From IMG/VR virus record IMGVR_UViG_3300045988_120407, positions 1 to 15,705 of that record: a DNA stretch of 15,705 nucleotides; one strand, given 5' to 3'. The notes under the pieces are model-generated. The model made no database searches. It was not told the DNA's origin and saw nothing but the letters and a program-made list of their open reading frames with translations. Both the position numbers and the translations under genes were made by a program. Position 1 is the stretch's first letter; every line of letters begins with the position of its first letter. This stretch comes from a virus. This document shows positions 1 to 15,705 of this stretch, piece after piece.

Positions 1-101
1 GCCCTTCTTTCCTTACACAAATAATACTACCACCAAAACCACCACCAAAACCTAACCATCATTTTCTAGCCCTTCTTTCCTTACACAAATAATACTACCA
101 C
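1..101. repeat. Terminal 33-bp direct repeat, two copies (1..33 and 69..101), 'gcccttctttccttacacaaataatactaccac'
   Basis: The string is identical at both positions in the sequence. It is mirrored at the right end (15605..15637 and 15673..15705), giving 4 copies per genome. Confidence 0.9.
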
Positions 102-102
102 A

Positions 103-360
103 ATTCGATCAACAAATCAACCACCAAAACCACCACACCAAAATCAACCACCAAAACCACCACCAAAATCAACCACGAACCACCAAGCCCAAAACAAACC
201 ACCAAAACCAACCACGAACCACCACCACCAAAACCAATCACGAACCACCACAGCCAAAACCACCAACAAACTAACAGCCTGATCTAGCCACAACCAAAAC
301 CACCACACCAAAACACATACCACGCAACCACGCACCAACAAACACAACACAAAACAAATA
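103..360. repeat. Strand-asymmetric CA-only (bottom-strand GT-only) degenerate repeat array with A4 tracts phased at ~13 bp
   Basis: The top strand has almost no G or T between ~103 and ~360. Units such as ccaccaaaacc and aaccacgaaccacc recur. 'ccaaaa' starts at 124, 138, 151, 163, 189, 202, 228, 254, 294 and 308. Intervals are 14, 13, 12, 26, 13, 26, 26, 40 and 14, roughly multiples of 13. Confidence 0.8.
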
Positions 361-419
361 AAGCCCATACCTTCCAATTATTCATAACAAAAATACCCCC
401 ATAAAAACAAGTAATAAAA

Positions 420-465
420 TTAGCCCTATTAATTATAGCCAATATCGTATATAATGAAACTACCG
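420..465 (+). promoter_or_regulatory. Putative sigma-A-type early promoter inside the left ITR (-10 TATAAT at 450..455, weak -35, AT-rich upstream)
   Basis: A perfect TATAAT lies ~30 bp upstream of the RBS 'aaggggc' and the ATG at 486. A mirrored copy sits in the right ITR upstream of the leftward ORF starting at 15220. Confidence 0.35.
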
Positions 466-485
466 AAAAGGGAAAGGGGCAAAAG

Positions 486-710
486 ATGAAGAAATATAGC
501 AAGCAAGATATTAAGAACCATATCGCCAATACGTTTGGTTTTGCTATTAATAAAATTGTTCTTCTTGAGTGGGGAACTGATCCTATCGAAGATTGCATGT
601 TTCGTGTCTGTGATATTGTTTACCAAGCCAACTATGACAACTTACATATTTATTGTTATATTGATAAATATAGTTATATTGATTATGAGGAGGTATTATG
701 TGCCCAATAG
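486..710 (+). CDS. Small early protein of unknown function (74 aa); first 9 codons lie inside the ITR
   Basis: ORF track. An SD-like 'aaggggc' sits 8 nt upstream. It is the first gene downstream of the ITR promoter. I recognise no domain. Confidence 0.55.
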   Translation: MKKYSKQDIKNHIANTFGFAINKIVLLEWGTDPIEDCMFRVCDIVYQANYDNLHIYCYIDKYSYIDYEEVLCAQ

Positions 711-774
711 ATAAAGCCCTCATAACCCTAACACTTCTTTTATTCTTCTCACTACCTCTTGCGAGCTGGTTTAT

Positions 775-1032
775 ATGGTAGATGTAAACGAAGTAAACAA
801 GGCACTTTCACTAACGTTTCCATCATTAGAATTTATCAAGATCATAATAGACGTTGATTATACCTATTATGAAACTCGCTTTATACTAGTAATGAGAAAC
901 GGAGACAAACTAGACCGTAAAGTCGAAAGCAAACAGCGCATTATTGCATACGATACCGACTCAATGTATAACGAGTGTTGTAAAGCTGCTAGACGCTTTA
1001 TGAATAAAGACACAGGGCAAGGGGGTGACTAG
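775..1032 (+). CDS. Hypothetical early protein (85 aa)
   Basis: The ORF fills the gap between flanking genes in the same orientation. The RBS is weak, so the start is uncertain. Confidence 0.45.
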   Translation: MVDVNEVNKALSLTFPSLEFIKIIIDVDYTYYETRFILVMRNGDKLDRKVESKQRIIAYDTDSMYNECCKAARRFMNKDTGQGGD

Positions 1033-1034
1033 AT

Positions 1035-1265
1035 ATGATTCGAAAAAAGTTTGTAGAAGTTAAAGCCACTATCACCGATGGCGAAAAAGATTTAGGCGTA
1101 TATACTTACACGGGAAAACCCGTTTCAGATATGAGACTTTTGAAAATGGTACGCCGTGAAACTGGCAACGACTTCGCAACGCTTAAGGGCATTATTAAGA
1201 TCGAAAAAGTTTTTGAATTGTCCGAAGATGATTTTATTAAACATGCTACCGTAAAGGAGAACTAA
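1035..1265 (+). CDS. Putative dsDNA-binding / histone-like early protein (phi29 p6-like, 76 aa)
   Basis: A strong RBS GGGGGTG precedes the start. It sits immediately upstream of the SSB-like gene, as in the phi29 6-5-3-2 order. It is small and basic, and its C-terminal pattern 'FELSEDDFIKHA' resembles the p6 family from memory. Homology was not computed. Confidence 0.35.
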   Translation: MIRKKFVEVKATITDGEKDLGVYTYTGKPVSDMRLLKMVRRETGNDFATLKGIIKIEKVFELSEDDFIKHATVKEN

Positions 1266-1797: not shown

Positions 1798-2652
1798 ATG
1801 GCTATTAGTAAAAAAGAATTATCACGATTGCAGAAAAACGCGCGTAATAAGCTTTACCGCTTGCGAAAAAAGGGCATCACTAACGCTCAAATCAATCAAA
1901 TGGCCGTACCTGTTAAATCGTGGGACGAAGTGCAGACCATGAGCGCTCGTGAGCAGAACGCCTATGCTCGACAATTACGAGAGTTTAATTCTCGTGAAAA
2001 TCGAATCGAGACACAGGGAAAATCTCTAAATTACATATTGCAACGAAATAGTAATATCGCTTTGCCCTATGAAAAAGTTTTTGAATACCGTACTGCAGAA
2101 GCAGAGAGAAACATAATCAGAGCGGAGCGCCGAGCAAGGCTCGAGAGCATCCGTGAAAATGTGGAGCTAAACAAGCCAGACGATGTTATAGCAGCCGTTG
2201 AATCAATCACAAAGAATTTACCAGAAAAAATATCTCGTGAGGATTTCGGACGAGGTGGAACAGAAAATCTAGTAGCACAGGTAGAACCGCGTAATAACCC
2301 GTTCAAATCGTTAGAACAATTAGAAAACGCGATTAAAGCCTATAACCGAGCAGTTAAAAACGCCCCTAAGACCGACGAAGCGTTAACTAGGCAAAACAGG
2401 GGGTATATTGAATCAGTTACTAATCGTTTAAGCGATGAGGGTTATTTAACGGAGGAATTAGCCAACATATTAGATAACTTAACCGACGATCAAATATATT
2501 ACCTTTATCACTATACCGATTTTGATGGTTTGACCGCCGTTTATCGCTATACACGTGATTATGATAAAGGACATTCAGGCGTTGCCGAAGCAACCAAGGG
2601 CGATAATTACGATAACATTTGGTCTATGCTTAACATAGTCAAGAATATATAG
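1798..2652 (+). CDS. Terminal protein (protein primer for DNA replication), 284 aa
   Basis: It lies immediately upstream of the protein-primed DNA polymerase, with a 4-nt gap. Its size is close to phi29 TP (266 aa). The N-terminus is strongly basic (KKELSRLQKNARNKLYRLRKKG) and the C-terminal half is acidic and Ser/Thr/Tyr-rich. The genome has ITRs. Confidence 0.7.
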   Translation: MAISKKELSRLQKNARNKLYRLRKKGITNAQINQMAVPVKSWDEVQTMSAREQNAYARQLREFNSRENRIETQGKSLNYILQRNSNIALPYEKVFEYRTAEAERNIIRAERRARLESIRENVELNKPDDVIAAVESITKNLPEKISREDFGRGGTENLVAQVEPRNNPFKSLEQLENAIKAYNRAVKNAPKTDEALTRQNRGYIESVTNRLSDEGYLTEELANILDNLTDDQIYYLYHYTDFDGLTAVYRYTRDYDKGHSGVAEATKGDNYDNIWSMLNIVKNI

Positions 2653-2656
2653 AGCT

Positions 2657-4363
2657 ATGGACTATGCAGAGTATGCAGCCGATTTTGAAACCAACACAAC
2701 AGAAGAGGGAGTGGCAAAAAATCCTGTTTGGGCGTGGGGCGTGTGCCTGGTCGGTAATAATGACACTTTTACTTATGGTCTATCAATCGAAAGTTTTATG
2801 GACACGATCTTAAATTTTAATAATGCTAGGATTTGGTTTCATAATTTGGCGTTCGATGGAAAATTTATAATTGATTATCTGTTAAGACACGATTTTAAAC
2901 ACGTTGAACAGATAAACGACAATATGCAACTAAGCACGCTTATCGATGATATGGGACGGTTCTATTCAATAAAGTTTCGCGCTATGGATAAAGAAATAGT
3001 GTTCGCTGATAGTCTTAAAAAAGTAACTATGAGTTTGGCCGATGCCGCCAACACCTACCATCTCGAAATGACCAAAGGCGAAATAGATTACAGCATCTAT
3101 AGGCCATCTGGTCATGAGTTGACCGCGCAAGAATTGGACTATTTACGGCGTGATGTTTGCATATTGGCGCAAGTGCTAGAGCAACGTTTAAAAATGGGAA
3201 CGAAGCTCACAACGTCGGCGGATTGTTTAGCAGTTTATAAGGATTTAATCGATAGTAAGAAGTTTAATAAACTTTTTCCAATGTTGCCAAAAAGAGCCGA
3301 TCACGACATAAGAAAATCGTATAAGGGCGGTTACGTATACGTTAACCCAATTCACCAAAACAAGACTTACCGTAAAGATGGTGTTTCGTTGGATGTTAAT
3401 AGTATGTATCCCTATCAAATGCGTTATAAATCTTATCCGTACGGTTTGCCTGAATTTGTCATGAACGAAAAAGAATTAGACGGCCTTTATGTCGCCTGTA
3501 TAGAATATACAGCCAAGTTAAAGCCACGGTGTTTGCCCTGTATACAGATTAAAGACAATTCGAAATTCAATCCTAGGGAGTATCAGCGCAATATTACGGA
3601 GCCTTTGATAGGCTGGTTCACAAGTGTGGATATAGAACTTATGCGGGATATGTATGACTTGGATATAATCGACTTTTTAGGGGCTTATAAGTTTAATAGC
3701 CAATACGGGTTATTTGACGATTATATAGATATTAACAATTACAATAAGACGCACGCGACTAATCCAGGTGAACGTTTTCAGGCGAAATTATGCAATAATT
3801 CGCTTTATGGAAAGTTCGGGCAAAAGATACAGGGAAGCAAGAAAATACCCGTTTTACAAGATGATACGGTTCATTATAAGCTGGTAGACGGTGACGATCG
3901 AGACCCTGTTTATATCCCTATTGCATCGTTTGTTACCGCTTATGCGCGAGACTATCTCATTAGAACGGCGGTAAAGTTTGGTGATAATTATATCTATAGC
4001 GATACCGATAGTATCAAGGCGTTTGGCGGTGTCCCCGAGTGGCTAGAAACCGACCCTAAAAAATTAGGTTATTTCGATTGCGAATACCGATTTAAGAAAT
4101 GCCGTTTTATCAGACCGAAAACCTACGCCGTGCAACTTGATAATGGTGAATACTCATATACTTGTGCAGGTATGCCACAAGGGCTAAAAGATGTAATGAG
4201 TTTTGATGATTTCAAGATAGGTTTTACCAATGACCCTAAACTAATTAAAGATATGAATAGGTTCAATAACAAATACTTATCAAAAGACTGTTATAAATTG
4301 GTGCCTAAGTTGGTAAAAGGCGGCGTTATACTTGAAGAAAGGCCATTTACTATAAGGGGGTAA
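2657..4363 (+). CDS. Protein-primed family B DNA polymerase (phi29 gp2-like), 568 aa
   Basis: Exo I 'DFETNT', Exo II 'HNLAFDGKFIIDYLL' and Exo III 'YLRRDVCILAQVL' are present. So are motif A 'LDVNSMYPYQM', motif B 'KLCNNSLYGKFGQ', motif C 'YSDTDSIKA' and KxY 'RPKTYAVQ'. All closely match the phi29 polymerase motifs. Confidence 0.95.
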   Translation: MDYAEYAADFETNTTEEGVAKNPVWAWGVCLVGNNDTFTYGLSIESFMDTILNFNNARIWFHNLAFDGKFIIDYLLRHDFKHVEQINDNMQLSTLIDDMGRFYSIKFRAMDKEIVFADSLKKVTMSLADAANTYHLEMTKGEIDYSIYRPSGHELTAQELDYLRRDVCILAQVLEQRLKMGTKLTTSADCLAVYKDLIDSKKFNKLFPMLPKRADHDIRKSYKGGYVYVNPIHQNKTYRKDGVSLDVNSMYPYQMRYKSYPYGLPEFVMNEKELDGLYVACIEYTAKLKPRCLPCIQIKDNSKFNPREYQRNITEPLIGWFTSVDIELMRDMYDLDIIDFLGAYKFNSQYGLFDDYIDINNYNKTHATNPGERFQAKLCNNSLYGKFGQKIQGSKKIPVLQDDTVHYKLVDGDDRDPVYIPIASFVTAYARDYLIRTAVKFGDNYIYSDTDSIKAFGGVPEWLETDPKKLGYFDCEYRFKKCRFIRPKTYAVQLDNGEYSYTCAGMPQGLKDVMSFDDFKIGFTNDPKLIKDMNRFNNKYLSKDCYKLVPKLVKGGVILEERPFTIRG

Positions 4364-5528: not shown

Positions 5529-5531
5529 CTA

Positions 5532-5560
5532 TTGAACGAAGGATGATTTTAAAGTAAGAT
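5532..5560 (+). promoter_or_regulatory. Putative sigma-A promoter TTGAAC-17-TAAGAT directly after endolysin stop
   Basis: The -35 ttgaac (5532..5537), a 17-bp spacer and the -10 taagat (5555..5560) are read from the sequence. This would initiate at ~5567. Confidence 0.4.
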
Positions 5561-5566
5561 TATCTA

Positions 5567-5738
5567 TACAGATAGTGCCGCCGTTTATAAGTAGTATGTA
5601 AAGTATCACCATAAGACAAAGCCTTGCGGCTATTGGTGATATAGTCCCTTGTCCCTGGCTCGACACTTTCTCGGTACGGTCTATCTGTAAAGATACGGGC
5701 TATTGGTGTATAATTATCACTGATAGCCCTTTTATTTT
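5567..5738 (+). ncRNA. Candidate ~170-nt structured small RNA / structured leader (pRNA-sized) ending in an intrinsic terminator
   Basis: A non-coding gap of ~225 bp. A long-range stem pairs 5560..5574 'tatctatacagatag' with 5682..5696 'ctatctgtaaagata' (14/15). An internal hairpin pairs 'tatcacca' with 'tggtgata'. A 12-bp direct repeat 'ggctattggtg' occurs twice (5628, 5699). A terminator hairpin closes it. Confidence 0.25.
5697..5738 (+). terminator. Rho-independent terminator (stem gggctattggtg / cactgatagccc, loop ~8 nt, then TTTTATTTT)
   Basis: A 7-bp perfect stem is extended by 5 more pairs with 2 G·U wobbles, then a 9-nt T-rich tract. The scaffold gene RBS and GTG follow immediately, so late transcription must read through or start upstream. 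Confidence 0.7.
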
Positions 5739-5752
5739 AGGAGGTAAAACAG

Positions 5753-6046
5753 GTGGATATTTTCGAACTATTGGCGGGTATCACTGATGAAATTGAAGAT
5801 TATCCCGCGTATTTATCCAATATTAATGATGCTTTTACGTCATATAACGACGGCCAGGTAGCATTAATCGAACAGCGCAATCAAGAGATTGAAGAGCTGC
5901 GCCGCGAAAACACTGATTTAAAAGCCAAGAATTATGAACTAATCATGGCGGAGACTGGTAATTCTGAAGATGAGGATGAGCCAGACGAAGCCGAAGAACT
6001 AACTATTGAAGATAAAGTTAAAGAAAACCTAATGAAGGAGGATTAA
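5753..6046 (+). CDS. Head scaffolding protein (phi29 gp7-like), 97 aa, GTG start
   Basis: RBS AGGAGG then GTG. It is a small, highly acidic, coiled-coil protein directly upstream of the major capsid gene. Its C-terminal 'ELTIEDKVKE' resembles the gp7 end 'ETITIEDLEAK'. Confidence 0.75.
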   Translation: MDIFELLAGITDEIEDYPAYLSNINDAFTSYNDGQVALIEQRNQEIEELRRENTDLKAKNYELIMAETGNSEDEDEPDEAEELTIEDKVKENLMKED

Positions 6047-7435
6047 ATGCCAGCAACCCTAACACTAAGTAACGCCGAAGTGCTTAACATGGTTCGAAGT
6101 GAAGCATCGGCGAGTTATCAGGAACGAATCCCCGCAGCAACGCGCGGCAATATCGCGAAAATTTTTGAAACGTTGGACGCGTATAGTCCAATTATGAATG
6201 AGTTCAATGATTTGTTGGTAAATCGTATTGGCTTAACGGTTTTTCAGACTAACTCATTCCGTAATTCACTCGCGCCATTGAAGCGTGGAGAGCAGCAATT
6301 CGGCGGAATGGTGCAGGAAATTCAGGGCGGGCTTATTTCTGCGGAGCGTTATGACCCTAATAACACTAATCCATTTGGAGCACCAAAGCCTGATATTGAA
6401 GTAAATTACTACAGCATGAACCGCCAGGATGTTTACCCTATGCGCTACAATCGCGACCAGTTGCGGCAAGCATTTGTTAATGATGGCGGCTTATCGGGTA
6501 TGATTAATGACATTTTGGCAATACCGTTAAAGTCCGATCAATGGGATGAATACTTGATTATGCGTAATCTCGTAAAGGGCGCGCATGATGCTTGGACAAT
6601 GCCAACTGTTAAAGTACCTGATATTGCAACTGCTAGCGACAAAGAAGCAGCAGGAAAAGAAATTGCAGTAGCAATGCGTGAGCATTACTTAATGATGCGC
6701 GACTTCATTAAGACACAGTACAATCCAAAGCATATGCCCGTATCTAGTGACGAGCTGGTAGTTTTGGGGACACCTGCATTTTTTGCATACTTTGATGTTG
6801 AAGTTTTGGCGGCGGCCTTCCATATGGATAAAGCAAACTTTATTGCTGAGAGAACCATTGTAGTTGATGACTTTGACATTGCAGGAGCACAAGCGGTGCT
6901 CATTGATGCGAGCGCCTATGTTTGCGCTGATAACCTTGTGGCAAATGACACTATTTATAATCCGCGTACCCGCGATTGGATTAGTTACTTGCATCACTGG
7001 GGTACTTACGCGCTGTCTGATATGCGTAATATGCTTTTGTTCTCTTCTACGGAAGAGGATAATTTAGGAAGTGTTACCGCTAAGACCGTGACTAGTGTAA
7101 GTCTTGCATTGACTAATACGGTAGCCGATAATGCTGTACTTGAACCAGGAGCCGAAATCGAACTTACTCCGAAAGTAACCTACAGTGATACCTCAACCGA
7201 CGAAGCGGTATTTTACTTGATTACTGATCTAAGCGCTACCGCTCCGACCGATACCAGTGCACCCGCGCCTAACGTTATCAGCCCTGATACAGGCACGTAT
7301 GTAGACGATCAAAACGTGTTACATGTTTCACGCAATAGCACGTATGAAACTCTTAACATTACGGCTTATGCAGCAGCTAATAATACTAAGCTTGCAAACC
7401 TTGAACTTAACAAGGTAGGCTATTCAGCGGGTTAA
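6047..7435 (+). CDS. Major capsid protein (phi29 gp8-like) with C-terminal Ig-like (BIG2-type) domain, 462 aa
   Basis: RBS AAGGAGG. 'FNDLLVNRIGLTVFQTNSFRNSLAPLKRG' matches gp8 '[29 protein letters not shown]'. 'NPRTRDW' matches 'NPRGLYW'. The C-terminal segment VTSVSLALTNTVADNAV...LTPKVTYSD is Ig-like. Confidence 0.9.
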   Translation: MPATLTLSNAEVLNMVRSEASASYQERIPAATRGNIAKIFETLDAYSPIMNEFNDLLVNRIGLTVFQTNSFRNSLAPLKRGEQQFGGMVQEIQGGLISAERYDPNNTNPFGAPKPDIEVNYYSMNRQDVYPMRYNRDQLRQAFVNDGGLSGMINDILAIPLKSDQWDEYLIMRNLVKGAHDAWTMPTVKVPDIATASDKEAAGKEIAVAMREHYLMMRDFIKTQYNPKHMPVSSDELVVLGTPAFFAYFDVEVLAAAFHMDKANFIAERTIVVDDFDIAGAQAVLIDASAYVCADNLVANDTIYNPRTRDWISYLHHWGTYALSDMRNMLLFSSTEEDNLGSVTAKTVTSVSLALTNTVADNAVLEPGAEIELTPKVTYSDTSTDEAVFYLITDLSATAPTDTSAPAPNVISPDTGTYVDDQNVLHVSRNSTYETLNITAYAAANNTKLANLELNKVGYSAG

Positions 7436-13807: not shown

Positions 13808-14863
13808 ATGGCTAAGTATTGGAACATAAACAAGGCACTTTCGTACAATGCGAACATTGTAATGGTAGCAGGTGCGCGTTCTATTGGTAAAACGTACACC
13901 ACATTGAAGCATTGCGTTAAACGCTTTATTAAACACGGTGAAGAATGTGTATATATCCGCCGTTATGAGCCAGAACTAAGGGCGGTTAAAAAGTATATAT
14001 TTTCAGACGTGGCAACCGATAAAGAGTTTAAGGACTACGTTTTTAGGCTGGTAGGCTCTGAATACCAGATAGCCAAGCGACCAAAAGACAAAGAGAAGCC
14101 CGAATGGCGAACATTCTGTTATCTCTTAATTGCGTCACGTTATCAGGATTATAAGGGTGTCCCGTTTCCTAAAGTCAAATATATCGTTTGGGACGAGTAC
14201 TTGAGAGAAAATAACCGCCCGCCCGGCTATTTAGTTGATGAGGTAGGGGCTATACTATCATTGCTTATTACGATCTCACGTAAAAAGCGCGATGTAACAT
14301 TTTTCTTGCTTACAAACTCATGCAATATAGTAAACCCGTTATTCAGATTTTTACATATCAGCAACGAGCCTAAAAAGGGATATACTCAATACAAATTGGG
14401 CACCACTAAGGATGGTAGTGATATTGTCTTATTGATGGACTATGTAGCTCCCGAGAGTTTTAAAGATGAATCGTTAAATACTATTGGCGGTGCCATTGCT
14501 GATGGTACTAAGTACGGCGATTATATCACGGGTAACAAGTTTACTAATGCCACGGATAAGTTCATAGCTAAAAAGCCCTCGACGGCTAAATATAGATATG
14601 GTTTTAAGTTTAACGACTATGTATTCGCGTGCTGGTATGATGCTAGTAGTTTTATTTATTTTATTAACGATAAAGTGCCAGCCGATAAACAAGTTATTGC
14701 ACTAACCATTGATGATTACGATTTGAACATGATAGCGGTTGAAAACTCCCGTGAGTTTATACGTACCTTGAAAAGATTATACTTAAACGGGGTTGTAAGG
14801 TTTGAAAGCCCTGTTTTGAGGGAAAACTATTTTAAGATGTGTAAGTTATTGAACTTGAGATAA
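13808..14863 (+). CDS. DNA packaging ATPase (phi29 gp16-like), 351 aa
   Basis: N-terminal 'NINKALSYNANIVMVAGARSIGKTYT' matches gp16 'NPQKMLSYDRILNFVIGARGIGKSYA' (Walker A). Walker B is 'KYIVWDEY'. Confidence 0.9.
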   Translation: MAKYWNINKALSYNANIVMVAGARSIGKTYTTLKHCVKRFIKHGEECVYIRRYEPELRAVKKYIFSDVATDKEFKDYVFRLVGSEYQIAKRPKDKEKPEWRTFCYLLIASRYQDYKGVPFPKVKYIVWDEYLRENNRPPGYLVDEVGAILSLLITISRKKRDVTFFLLTNSCNIVNPLFRFLHISNEPKKGYTQYKLGTTKDGSDIVLLMDYVAPESFKDESLNTIGGAIADGTKYGDYITGNKFTNATDKFIAKKPSTAKYRYGFKFNDYVFACWYDASSFIYFINDKVPADKQVIALTIDDYDLNMIAVENSREFIRTLKRLYLNGVVRFESPVLRENYFKMCKLLNLR

Positions 14864-14864
14864 A

Positions 14865-14900
14865 GAAAGCGCCCTATTCGGCGCTTTCTGTTTCTTCTGT
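14865..14900. terminator. Bidirectional intrinsic terminator (gaaagcgcc-ctattc-ggcgctttc then T-rich tract)
   Basis: A perfect 9-bp palindromic stem with a 6-nt loop is followed by tgtttcttctgtttcc on + and tttatctc on -. It sits between the convergent ATPase gene and the leftward small ORFs. Confidence 0.7.
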
Positions 14901-15050
14901 TTCCATGTTTTCTATTAGATAGTTCATTGCGATCATGAGAGATTTATTTACTGCTTCGTCTGATATTTTTACCTTTTCGGATAACACAATTTCTATGGTT
15001 AAATCGCTAAAATATCCATTAATCGAATAGTTAATCGTACGGTGTTTCAT
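14874..15050 (-). CDS. Small acidic protein (58 aa), second gene of right-end leftward operon; not in ORF track
   Basis: Hand translation of the reverse strand gives MKHRTINYSINGYFSDLTIEIVLSEKVKISDEAVNKSLMIAMNYLIENMETEETESAE*. SD 'AGGGG' lies 8 nt upstream. The stop codon lies in the terminator loop. It is below the track length cutoff. Confidence 0.45.
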   Translation of the reverse strand: MKHRTINYSINGYFSDLTIEIVLSEKVKISDEAVNKSLMIAMNYLIENMETEETESAE

Positions 15051-15061
15051 TTAGTTTACCC

Positions 15062-15220
15062 CTAATCTTCCTCTACTAATTCGTATTCTCCATCATTGTT
15101 TACAACCTCATAATAGTGCTCGGGACTGTCAACATAATTCTCGAAAATAACAACTGCATTATAATCTGTACCGTAACGATTCATTTTATATAGAATATCT
15201 TGCTTGCTATATTTCTTCAT
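15062..15220 (-). CDS. Small acidic protein (52 aa), first gene of right-end leftward operon; N-terminal 9 aa encoded by the ITR; not in ORF track
   Basis: Hand translation gives MKKYSKQDILYKMNRYGTDYNAVVIFENYVDSPEHYYEVVNNDGEYELVEED*. It has the same ITR-borne RBS and start as the left gene at 486. It diverges after codon 9, where the ITR ends. Confidence 0.55.
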   Translation of the reverse strand: MKKYSKQDILYKMNRYGTDYNAVVIFENYVDSPEHYYEVVNNDGEYELVEED

Positions 15221-15705
15221 CTTTTGCCCCTTTCCCTTTTCGGTAGTTTCATTATATACGATATTGGCTATAATTAATAGGGCTAATTTTATTACTTGTT
15301 TTTATGGGGGTATTTTTGTTATGAATAATTGGAAGGTATGGGCTTTATTTGTTTTGTGTTGTGTTTGTTGGTGCGTGGTTGCGTGGTATGTGTTTTGGTG
15401 TGGTGGTTTTGGTTGTGGCTAGATCAGGCTGTTAGTTTGTTGGTGGTTTTGGCTGTGGTGGTTCGTGATTGGTTTTGGTGGTGGTGGTTCGTGGTTGGTT
15501 TTGGTGGTTTGTTTTGGGCTTGGTGGTTCGTGGTTGATTTTGGTGGTGGTTTTGGTGGTTGATTTTGGTGTGGTGGTTTTGGTGGTTGATTTGTTGATCG
15601 AATTGTGGTAGTATTATTTGTGTAAGGAAAGAAGGGCTAGAAAATGATGGTTAGGTTTTGGTGGTGGTTTTGGTGGTAGTATTATTTGTGTAAGGAAAGA
15701 AGGGC
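15194..15705. repeat. Right inverted terminal repeat (~512 bp)
   Basis: Reverse complement of 1..512. Confidence 0.9.
15245..15290 (-). promoter_or_regulatory. Mirror copy of ITR promoter driving leftward right-end operon
   Basis: By ITR symmetry with 420..465. The -10 TATAAT on the minus strand is at ~15251..15256. Confidence 0.35.

Follow-up and report, generated by a model that had tools for sequence, protein, structure and literature searches.

Linear mitochondrial plasmids are protein-primed replicons. In these plasmids and in linear mitochondrial DNAs (mtDNAs), subtelomeric genes are homogenised through expansion of the inverted terminal repeats, or ITRs (Smith & Keeling 2013, PMC3673629). 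Because of this expansion, the first 32–72 residues are the same for the DNA-polymerase and RNA-polymerase genes that sit at opposite ends of the Pichia kluyveri, Podospora anserina, and Brassica napus plasmids. Gene fragments are common within the repeats of plasmids and mtDNAs, and the homogenisation has been ascribed to gene conversion between the two ends (PMC3673629). For adenovirus and PRD1, a passage of PMC11886824 that cites Savilahti & Bamford 1993 and Wang et al. 1991 describes the restoration of ITR homology via a ‘panhandle’, and the same source notes that panhandles still await direct proof. In multiple displacement amplification (MDA) with the phi29 DNA polymerase, 85% of products were inverted joins with a deletion (Lasken & Stockwell 2007, PMC1855051), and the joins in these chimeras mostly display 2–21 nt of complementarity; in this reaction, a displaced 3′ end finds a new priming site on a strand running in the opposite direction (PMC1855051).

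The window (the whole 15,705-nt stretch of DNA analysed here) is the complete linear genome of a phi29-like, protein-primed podovirus. Reading rightward, it encodes a phi29-type SSB (1268–1714), a family-B DNA polymerase of the protein-primed type (2657–4363; PF03175, E = 5e-61; phrog_1907, E = 5e-131), a phi29-type major capsid protein (6047–7435), and a gp16-type packaging ATPase (13808–14863), together with a holin, an amidase endolysin, a tail knob, and a connector. The capsid, connector, tail knob, and gp16 ATPase families (PF25622, PF05352, PF20934, and PF05894) all scored over their curated cut-offs. The 284-aa ORF located directly upstream of the polymerase gene (1798–2652), next to which phi29-like phages have the gene of their 5′-bound terminal protein, matched no family in the Pfam and PHROG scans, and no Rfam family, whether pRNA or other RNA, reached its gathering score across the window, although a divergent pRNA is possible. 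The only leftward ORFs are two small ones at the right end (15220..15062 and 15050..14874). The second of these (14874..15050, minus strand) encodes 58 residues, has its own RBS, and gave tblastn matches in 13 relatives. The packaging-ATPase gene and the right-end operon converge on a hairpin terminator at 14864..14889, whose 10-bp stem includes six GC pairs. The whole window had no megablast match among GenBank phages, and the nearest GenBank phage polymerases are at most 39% identical to its own.

Alignment of the two ends of the window against each other revealed a perfect ITR of 512 bp, in which the left arm (1..512) is 100% complementary to the right arm (15194..15705), and the similarity ends abruptly at 513/15193. 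The original prediction held that the repeat passes about 27 bp beyond the ATG at 486, with a mirror ATG at 15220 on the minus strand, and that the left 74-aa and right 52-aa ORFs share their first nine residues and split where the repeat ends. All of this was borne out: both start codons lie within the ITR, the boundary at 512/15194 falls downstream of them and not upstream, and the repeat extends exactly 27 nt (nine codons, MKKYSKQDI) into each ORF, occupying 486..512 on the plus strand and 15194..15220 on the minus strand. The left ITR is joined to the left unique arm in the ENA contigs L035, L036, and L037, and the right ITR is joined to the right unique arm in L038 (which includes 495 nt of the ITR), L040, and L041. 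Since each junction was found in separate contigs from other samples, the repeat and its two junctions are not an artefact of one assembly, although the identity of the two ITR copies within a single short-read assembly may be partly so by construction. The exact 27-mer had no match in IMG/VR and JGI metagenome contigs, and the peptide MKKYSKQDI was absent from 17 IMG/VR relatives.

The left terminal gene (486..710, plus strand; 74 aa) belongs to a small-protein family, here called family A, with 11 cluster representatives at 65–90% identity and 28 invariant columns. The other 10 representatives have the common start M(K)(E)Y[STR]K.DIKKHIA.TFGF, and P0007–P0016 start MKEY[ST]KQDIKKHIA. As the family-A homologues share this start, MKKYSKQDI is native to the left gene family, and the 27 nt at 486..512 are the native start of the gene. 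The structural model of family A comprises a helix at residues 6–17 and four strands (pLDDT 73), in which residues 6–9 of the nonapeptide are part of the first helix; according to this model, the peptide is partly structural in the left protein and not a free tag. None of the small terminal proteins had a significant match in Pfam or PHROG, and Foldseek searches of the PDB with the models of both terminal families returned nothing usable (best E-values 0.12 and 0.8).

The right terminal ORF (15062..15220, minus strand; 52 aa), whose exact product is also encoded by L038, consists of nine family-A codons followed by the C-terminal 43 codons of a 75-aa gene of another family, family B. Its homologues (approximately 80% identity) are 74–87 aa long and read ...(E/D)EILYKMNRYGTDYNAVVIFENY, where the window has MKKYSKQDILYKMNRYG; in another excerpt, the window's protein reads MKKYSKQDILYKMNRYGTDYNAVVIFENY against the (E/D)EILYKMNRYGTDYNAVVIFENY of the homologues. 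Because the homologues are longer and have another N-terminus, the right ORF represents a family-B protein whose first ~32 residues have been lost and replaced. The 27 nt at 15194..15220 thus encode a foreign N-terminus, in place of which the protein of a second allele (contig L042) and P0002–P0005 have a different N-terminus of 32 residues, and MKKYSKQDI is absent from the intact family-B homologues. The two terminal proteins, described as unrelated in the original prediction, do belong to two different small-protein families, the right one being a truncated chimera. The possibility that they are diverged paralogues, raised by a tblastn match of 50% over 28 aa, was rejected, as the identity consists mostly of the nine repeat-encoded residues and the predicted folds differ. 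Full-length family B was modeled as a compact β1-β2-α-β3-β4-β5 domain (pLDDT 84). Judged from this model, the chimera, having lost residues 1–32, would be without β1, β2, and the first third of the helix. The 52-aa product is probably what is left, disabled but tolerated, of an accessory gene that the phage can do without.

The ENA contig L042, which derives from the same phage, preserves the intact form of the right gene. It is identical to the window over 947 of 947 nt from position 15201 inward, while its first 37 nt correspond to ITR positions 453–489, through ATGA. Between these two matched parts, L042 has 84 nt and the window 15 nt, a difference of −69 nt (23 codons net) that leaves the frame intact. 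L042 encodes a full-length 75-aa protein beginning MMYTVEYHKNNKPYCYETFNPWDSIAEVVEDILYKMNRYG..., and this full-length gene is the ancestral form, since it is kept in distant relatives and models as a compact domain. At the join of the two ends lies an 8-nt microhomology, AAGATATT (505..512, plus strand; mirror copy at 15194–15201), which forms part of codons 7–9 of the left gene (cAA GAT ATT, 505–512) and of codons 30–32 of the intact right gene (gAA GAT ATT). The octamer occurs four times in the window, and about one common 8-mer would arise by chance between two AT-rich genes of 225 nt; the microhomology accounts for the position of the join but not for its cause. Among the contigs found, the chimeric junction is the commoner one (the window and three ENA assemblies versus one intact), with the qualification that the ENA samples carrying the alleles have consecutive accession numbers and thus possibly come from one study and are not fully independent. 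The higher count of the chimeric allele is compatible with neutrality and also with an advantage.

The position of the repeat boundary was further compared among 17 IMG/VR relatives (~90% polymerase identity), of which 15 full contigs were rebuilt from overlapping loci. Perfect ITRs of 55–508 bp were present in eight of the rebuilt relatives, and their inner boundary was measured from the ATG of the first inward gene. The boundary lies at the ATG in six of the eight, with offsets of −3/−5 in 108249 and 105019, −6 in 130956, +3 in 124046 and 125853, and +5 in 124703. In 110784 the offset is +56; its right end has an intact 70-aa gene, of which the left end holds a 27-aa fragment. The eighth relative, 128792, has a truncated ITR of 55 nt with its boundary at about +5. 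The part common to the two terminal genes is at most the ATG and 2 nt in six of the eight. Behind the ATG stand at least six unrelated families of small proteins, and one family may be found at the left end here and at the right end elsewhere.

Upstream of the start codon, the inner part of the ITR is conserved and resembles an expression module. This block (366..485, plus strand) is a putative promoter/operator/5′UTR module of the left gene, and its mirror copy (15221..15340, minus strand) is the sole DNA upstream of the right-end minus-strand operon. Across 11 genomes, mean pairwise identity is 81.6% in these 120 nt upstream of the ATG, as compared with 62.8% in the next 150 nt outward (the outer ITR), 39.0% in the first 150 nt of the terminal gene, and 83.1% in the polymerase DNA, which reveals a conservation cliff at the start codon. 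The block includes the motif TTATAGCCAATATCGTATATAAT (433..455, plus strand), which combines a −10-like TATAAT (450–455) with an imperfect palindrome (TTATAGC-N8-GCTATAA in relatives). The two ITRs hold the window's only copies of this motif, against none expected by chance, and the alignment shows that the TATAAT/TATACT box and the palindrome are kept in relatives. A Shine-Dalgarno-like sequence, GGGAAAGGGG (470..479, plus strand; mirror copy at 15227–15236, minus strand), ends 6 nt before the ATG at 486, and the same RBS precedes every terminal gene in all relatives, whichever gene family follows it.

A sigma-70 promoter would have TTGACA-like and TATAAT-like hexamers 16–18 nt apart; consensus scans for a −35/−10 pair of this kind found none above the scan threshold in either ITR, the best −35 candidates matching at 2/6 positions. 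Other −35/−10 pairings further upstream in the conserved block, sought by eye, were rejected because their spacing is too short. Since the ITR is the only upstream DNA in a linear genome and the block is conserved like an essential gene, it is probably the early promoter of both terminal genes, perhaps with an operator, and shared 5′ control of the two genes is the best reading of the sequence. The original prediction had placed a promoter, an RBS, and a start codon within the ITR and had proposed symmetric, co-regulated expression from both ends. The RBS, the ATG, and the upstream region are indeed present at both ends, and the contrast between the conserved shared 5′ region and the divergent genes behind it argues for co-regulation, whereas the promoter itself, having no canonical −35 element, is a candidate.

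Taken together, these findings are very probably explained by an expression module carried in the ITR and a single copying event from one end to the other, of which MKKYSKQDI is the recombination scar. The module, consisting of the TATAAT box overlapped by the palindrome, a short leader, the RBS, and the ATG, would drive one inward gene per end, and the genes under its control would be small, fast-evolving, and interchangeable. The ancestral repeat would have ended at the start codon, a state that the sister strain still displays. In one event in the lineage of the window, the left ITR and the first nine codons of the left gene would have been copied onto the right end until the octamer AAGATATT was reached, after which synthesis or repair would have gone on along the right-end sequence. 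Most likely, either a displaced or nascent 3′ end terminating in ...AAGATATT switched template during strand-displacement replication and re-primed at the other end of the genome, on the strand with the opposite polarity, or the end was repaired inside an ITR ‘panhandle’. As far as the sequence goes, a template switch, panhandle repair, and recombination all fit. By whichever route, the window gained its extra 23–27 nt of repeat through a join at the microhomology that truncated the right gene: the ITR was enlarged from about 489 to 512 bp, and 32 native codons of the right gene were swapped in frame for nine foreign ones, giving rise to the 52-aa chimera.

A broader proposal, which we put forward tentatively, is that the ITR pair acts as ‘terminal expression sites’, in which a promoter/RBS module is kept identical by end-to-end copying and the inner boundary serves as a recombination hotspot that swaps and fuses small early accessory genes, possibly with functions in host takeover or anti-defence. 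If this were true, the window would have caught one such boundary exchange in the act, and ITR homogenisation would generate diversity beyond what replication needs.

Of the alternative explanations, an adaptive origin of the chimera fares best, but it appears unlikely. Here, the 52-aa protein would have gained a new or dominant-negative activity, or the loss of the intact protein would have been favoured, and recombination at the ITR boundary would be under selection to diversify early accessory genes. The greater number of chimeric contigs is consistent with such selection, except that the samples behind this count are perhaps not independent. Terminal genes have been repeatedly swapped or fused in the clade, as in 121386, where residues 1–23 of family A are fused to family E, in 106327, where residues 1–10 of family B are fused to family A, and in 110784 with its gene fragment. 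Moreover, the C-terminal 43 residues of the right protein are still at least 79% identical to its three closest homologues. Against this reading, the event deleted core secondary structure, no Pfam, PHROG, or PDB-fold match gives either family a function, and the neutral loss of a dispensable accessory gene covers the same data.

A second alternative, which we consider quite improbable, places the start of the right gene at the internal ATG at 15184, so that at the right end the nine codons would be leader and the two proteins would have no peptide in common. This start agrees with the annotation of the source, whose database entry for the 15,705-nt contig (P0001) is the 40-aa version of the protein; a search for the 40-aa product on contigs gave no match. 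However, the ATG at 15220 has the conserved GGGAAAGGGG RBS at 6 nt, whereas the purine-rich stretch is absent upstream of 15184; the methionine at 15184 is the internal residue 36 of the intact 75-aa protein, and the gene caller of another assembly took the 52-aa ORF.

The original prediction had further suggested that the shared N-terminus may carry a function of its own. According to this view, the nonapeptide would be a functional N-terminal module (a localisation, degradation, or co-translational signal) set on two early proteins by way of the ITR. In its favour, the same strong RBS precedes two ORFs that have both kept an open, in-frame reading, proteins of either family tend to begin MK.Y....IK, the chimeric allele is present in several samples, and 106327 is a reciprocal chimera with a family-B N-terminus on a family-A body. 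Nonetheless, the N-termini of the terminal pair are unrelated in six of the eight ITR-bearing relatives (e.g. MTKVID versus MKEYTV and MRYVD versus MSKVI), and, with the repeat boundary at the ATG in these six, no shared tag is conserved. In addition, the intact right-gene homologues do without the peptide, its residues 6–9 are modeled within the first helix of the left protein, the event cost the right protein 32 residues of its folded core, and a join would fall in frame by chance in one case out of three. The search for the peptide in homologous phages likewise turned out negative for a tag: the motif is the native start of family A, it stands on no intact family-B protein, and the pairs in six of the eight relatives share only the initial Met. 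A functional tag is therefore very unlikely, and the peptide is better described as native to the left family, having arrived on the right protein by a microhomology join.

Finally, a repeat extension that merely reflects a chimeric contig, formed by strain mixing or by an MDA chimera, is barely credible: related strains do live side by side in metagenomes (a single IMG sample yielded 15 relatives), both alleles were found in the ENA samples with consecutive accession numbers, and amplification with the phi29 polymerase yields inverted chimeras at microhomologies, but the same right junction was assembled independently in L038, L040, and L041, the 52-aa product is recorded from another sample, the k-mers of any assembler are far longer than an overlap of 8 nt, and MDA chimeras, which seldom form at any given site, would not come to dominate four assemblies.

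With copying from the left end to the right as the preferred explanation, the ‘before’ and ‘after’ alleles provide a nucleotide-level view of how terminal repeats expand in a protein-primed phage and alter the genes next to them. In annotation, a small ORF at an ITR boundary can be a chimera or a fragment, and gene callers differ on where it starts. In this uncultured gut-type phage clade, the ITR module is further a candidate for the early promoter, and the variable terminal genes behind it are candidate host-interaction genes.

Compared with known systems, the window is similar to phi29 in its homologous SSB, polymerase, capsid, connector, and packaging ATPase and in its small inward-reading set of right-end genes. 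It differs from phi29 in that its ITR measures 512 bp, whereas the ITR of phi29 measures 6 bp (6–16 bp in the Bacillus relatives) and cannot hold a promoter, and in that its replication and structural genes all read rightward from the left end, with no canonical −35 and no pRNA detected. The main early promoters of phi29, A2b and A2c, are internal. The likeness to the A- and C2-promoter early operons of phi29 that had been proposed is therefore a loose one, which holds for the small inward gene set at the right end but not for the location of the promoters. As in the panhandle models of adenovirus and PRD1, one end appears to have templated the rewriting of the other at the right end of the window. 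In those viruses, damaged or mismatched repeats are restored, whereas here the copying would have overshot the old boundary and stopped at a chance microhomology within a gene. The MDA chimeras and the window have in common the type of polymerase (family B, strand-displacing), the geometry of the join, and an overlap at the join, which in the window is 8 nt; unlike those products, which arise in vitro on random-primed DNA, the product here is a viable, circulating genome.

The closest precedent is provided by the linear mitochondrial plasmids. Like these, the window is a linear replicon with palindromic ends and two different inward-reading genes whose N-termini are identical up to the repeat boundary, and gene fragments are found at one end; here, the overwritten end can be identified, with the left end as the donor and the right end as the recipient. 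The window differs from the plasmids in being a tailed phage, in the length of the shared tract (nine codons), and in the genes concerned, which are small accessory genes instead of polymerases, and in that the alleles from before and after the event, together with the 8-nt microhomology, were recovered from natural samples. The window thus displays every defining feature of terminal-repeat expansion with N-terminal gene homogenisation, a process described in linear mitochondrial plasmids that now extends to the tailed phages.

Among the related IMG/VR contigs, the boundaries of the inverted terminal repeat (ITR) displayed further natural fusions involving the small-protein families (A, B, D and E) to which the terminal genes belong. 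The left end of relative 121386 (446-688) carries family-A residues 1-23 joined to a family-E protein. At the right end of 106327, the body of a family-A protein bears a decapeptide from family B. The third case, at the left end of 110784 (360-443), is a 27-aa fragment of a family-D gene that arose through a 56-nt extension of the ITR. Automated start calls are unreliable at ITR boundaries. The right ORF of the window was annotated in the source as a 40-aa protein (database protein P0001; 15065-15184, minus strand) starting at an internal Met that lacks an RBS, and the gene caller of another assembly gave the same ORF 52 aa. In some relatives (106327 and 096655, right ends), an extra gene for a protein of 171-178 aa separates the small terminal gene from the conserved gene of 58 aa, and the gene number of the right-end operon is therefore also variable.

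At the left end, a 27-aa hydrophobic ORF (MCPIDKALITLTLLLFFSLPLASWFIW; 698-781, plus strand) with a strong RBS (GAGGAGG) overlaps both the stop of the 74-aa terminal gene and the start of the ORF at 775..1032, and is kept in 16 of the 17 relatives. Immediately upstream lies a sigma-70-like site (634-662; ATGACA-17-TATATT with TG, 10/12). The ORF is shorter than the customary ORF length cut-off.

Alignment of the relatives' ends revealed a 7-bp inverted repeat, TTATAGC-N8-GCTATAA, over the -10-like box in most of them; the copy in the window (433-455) is imperfect (TTATAGC...TATATAA). As a candidate operator, this palindrome would serve a dimeric regulator that acts on the terminal genes.

On the strand with the 5' end, A and C make up 91% of the outer ITR (102-360, mirrored at 15346-15604), with counts of 128 A, 106 C, 11 G and 13 T, which makes the 3' template strand rich in G and T and telomere-like. 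This region is made up of repeats of the ACCACCAAAACC type, which are degenerate and show periods of 13, 26-27, 39 and 65 nt, and their copy number is polymorphic, as one additional 27-nt unit is present in L037, an ENA contig joining the ITR to the left unique arm. The repeats might form an array for a DNA-binding protein or serve as a means of avoiding secondary structure. Further outward, the terminal 33 nt of the window (1-33) recur exactly at 69-101, 68 nt inward, and are mirrored at the right end; the first ~270 nt of relative 124046 comprise a 64-nt terminal unit repeated four times in tandem. The extreme ends differ among the relatives, and they begin with GCCC and not with a reiterated base. 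Given these terminal repeats and unconserved, GCCC-starting ends, the true termini may be incomplete, or the ends may bear reiterated origins.

A search of the whole window detected no pRNA or other Rfam family. A divergent packaging RNA or a late promoter might be sought in the 224-nt non-coding gap at 5529-5752, ahead of the capsid gene and of the scaffold-like ORF at 5753-6046. A 284-aa ORF (1798-2652, plus strand) without a family match lies directly upstream of the polymerase gene and is, by position, a candidate terminal protein. Just upstream of the SSB gene, a conserved 76-aa protein (1035-1265, plus strand) weakly matched a dsDNA-binding-protein PHROG (E=0.05), and its position is that of gene 6 in phi29.
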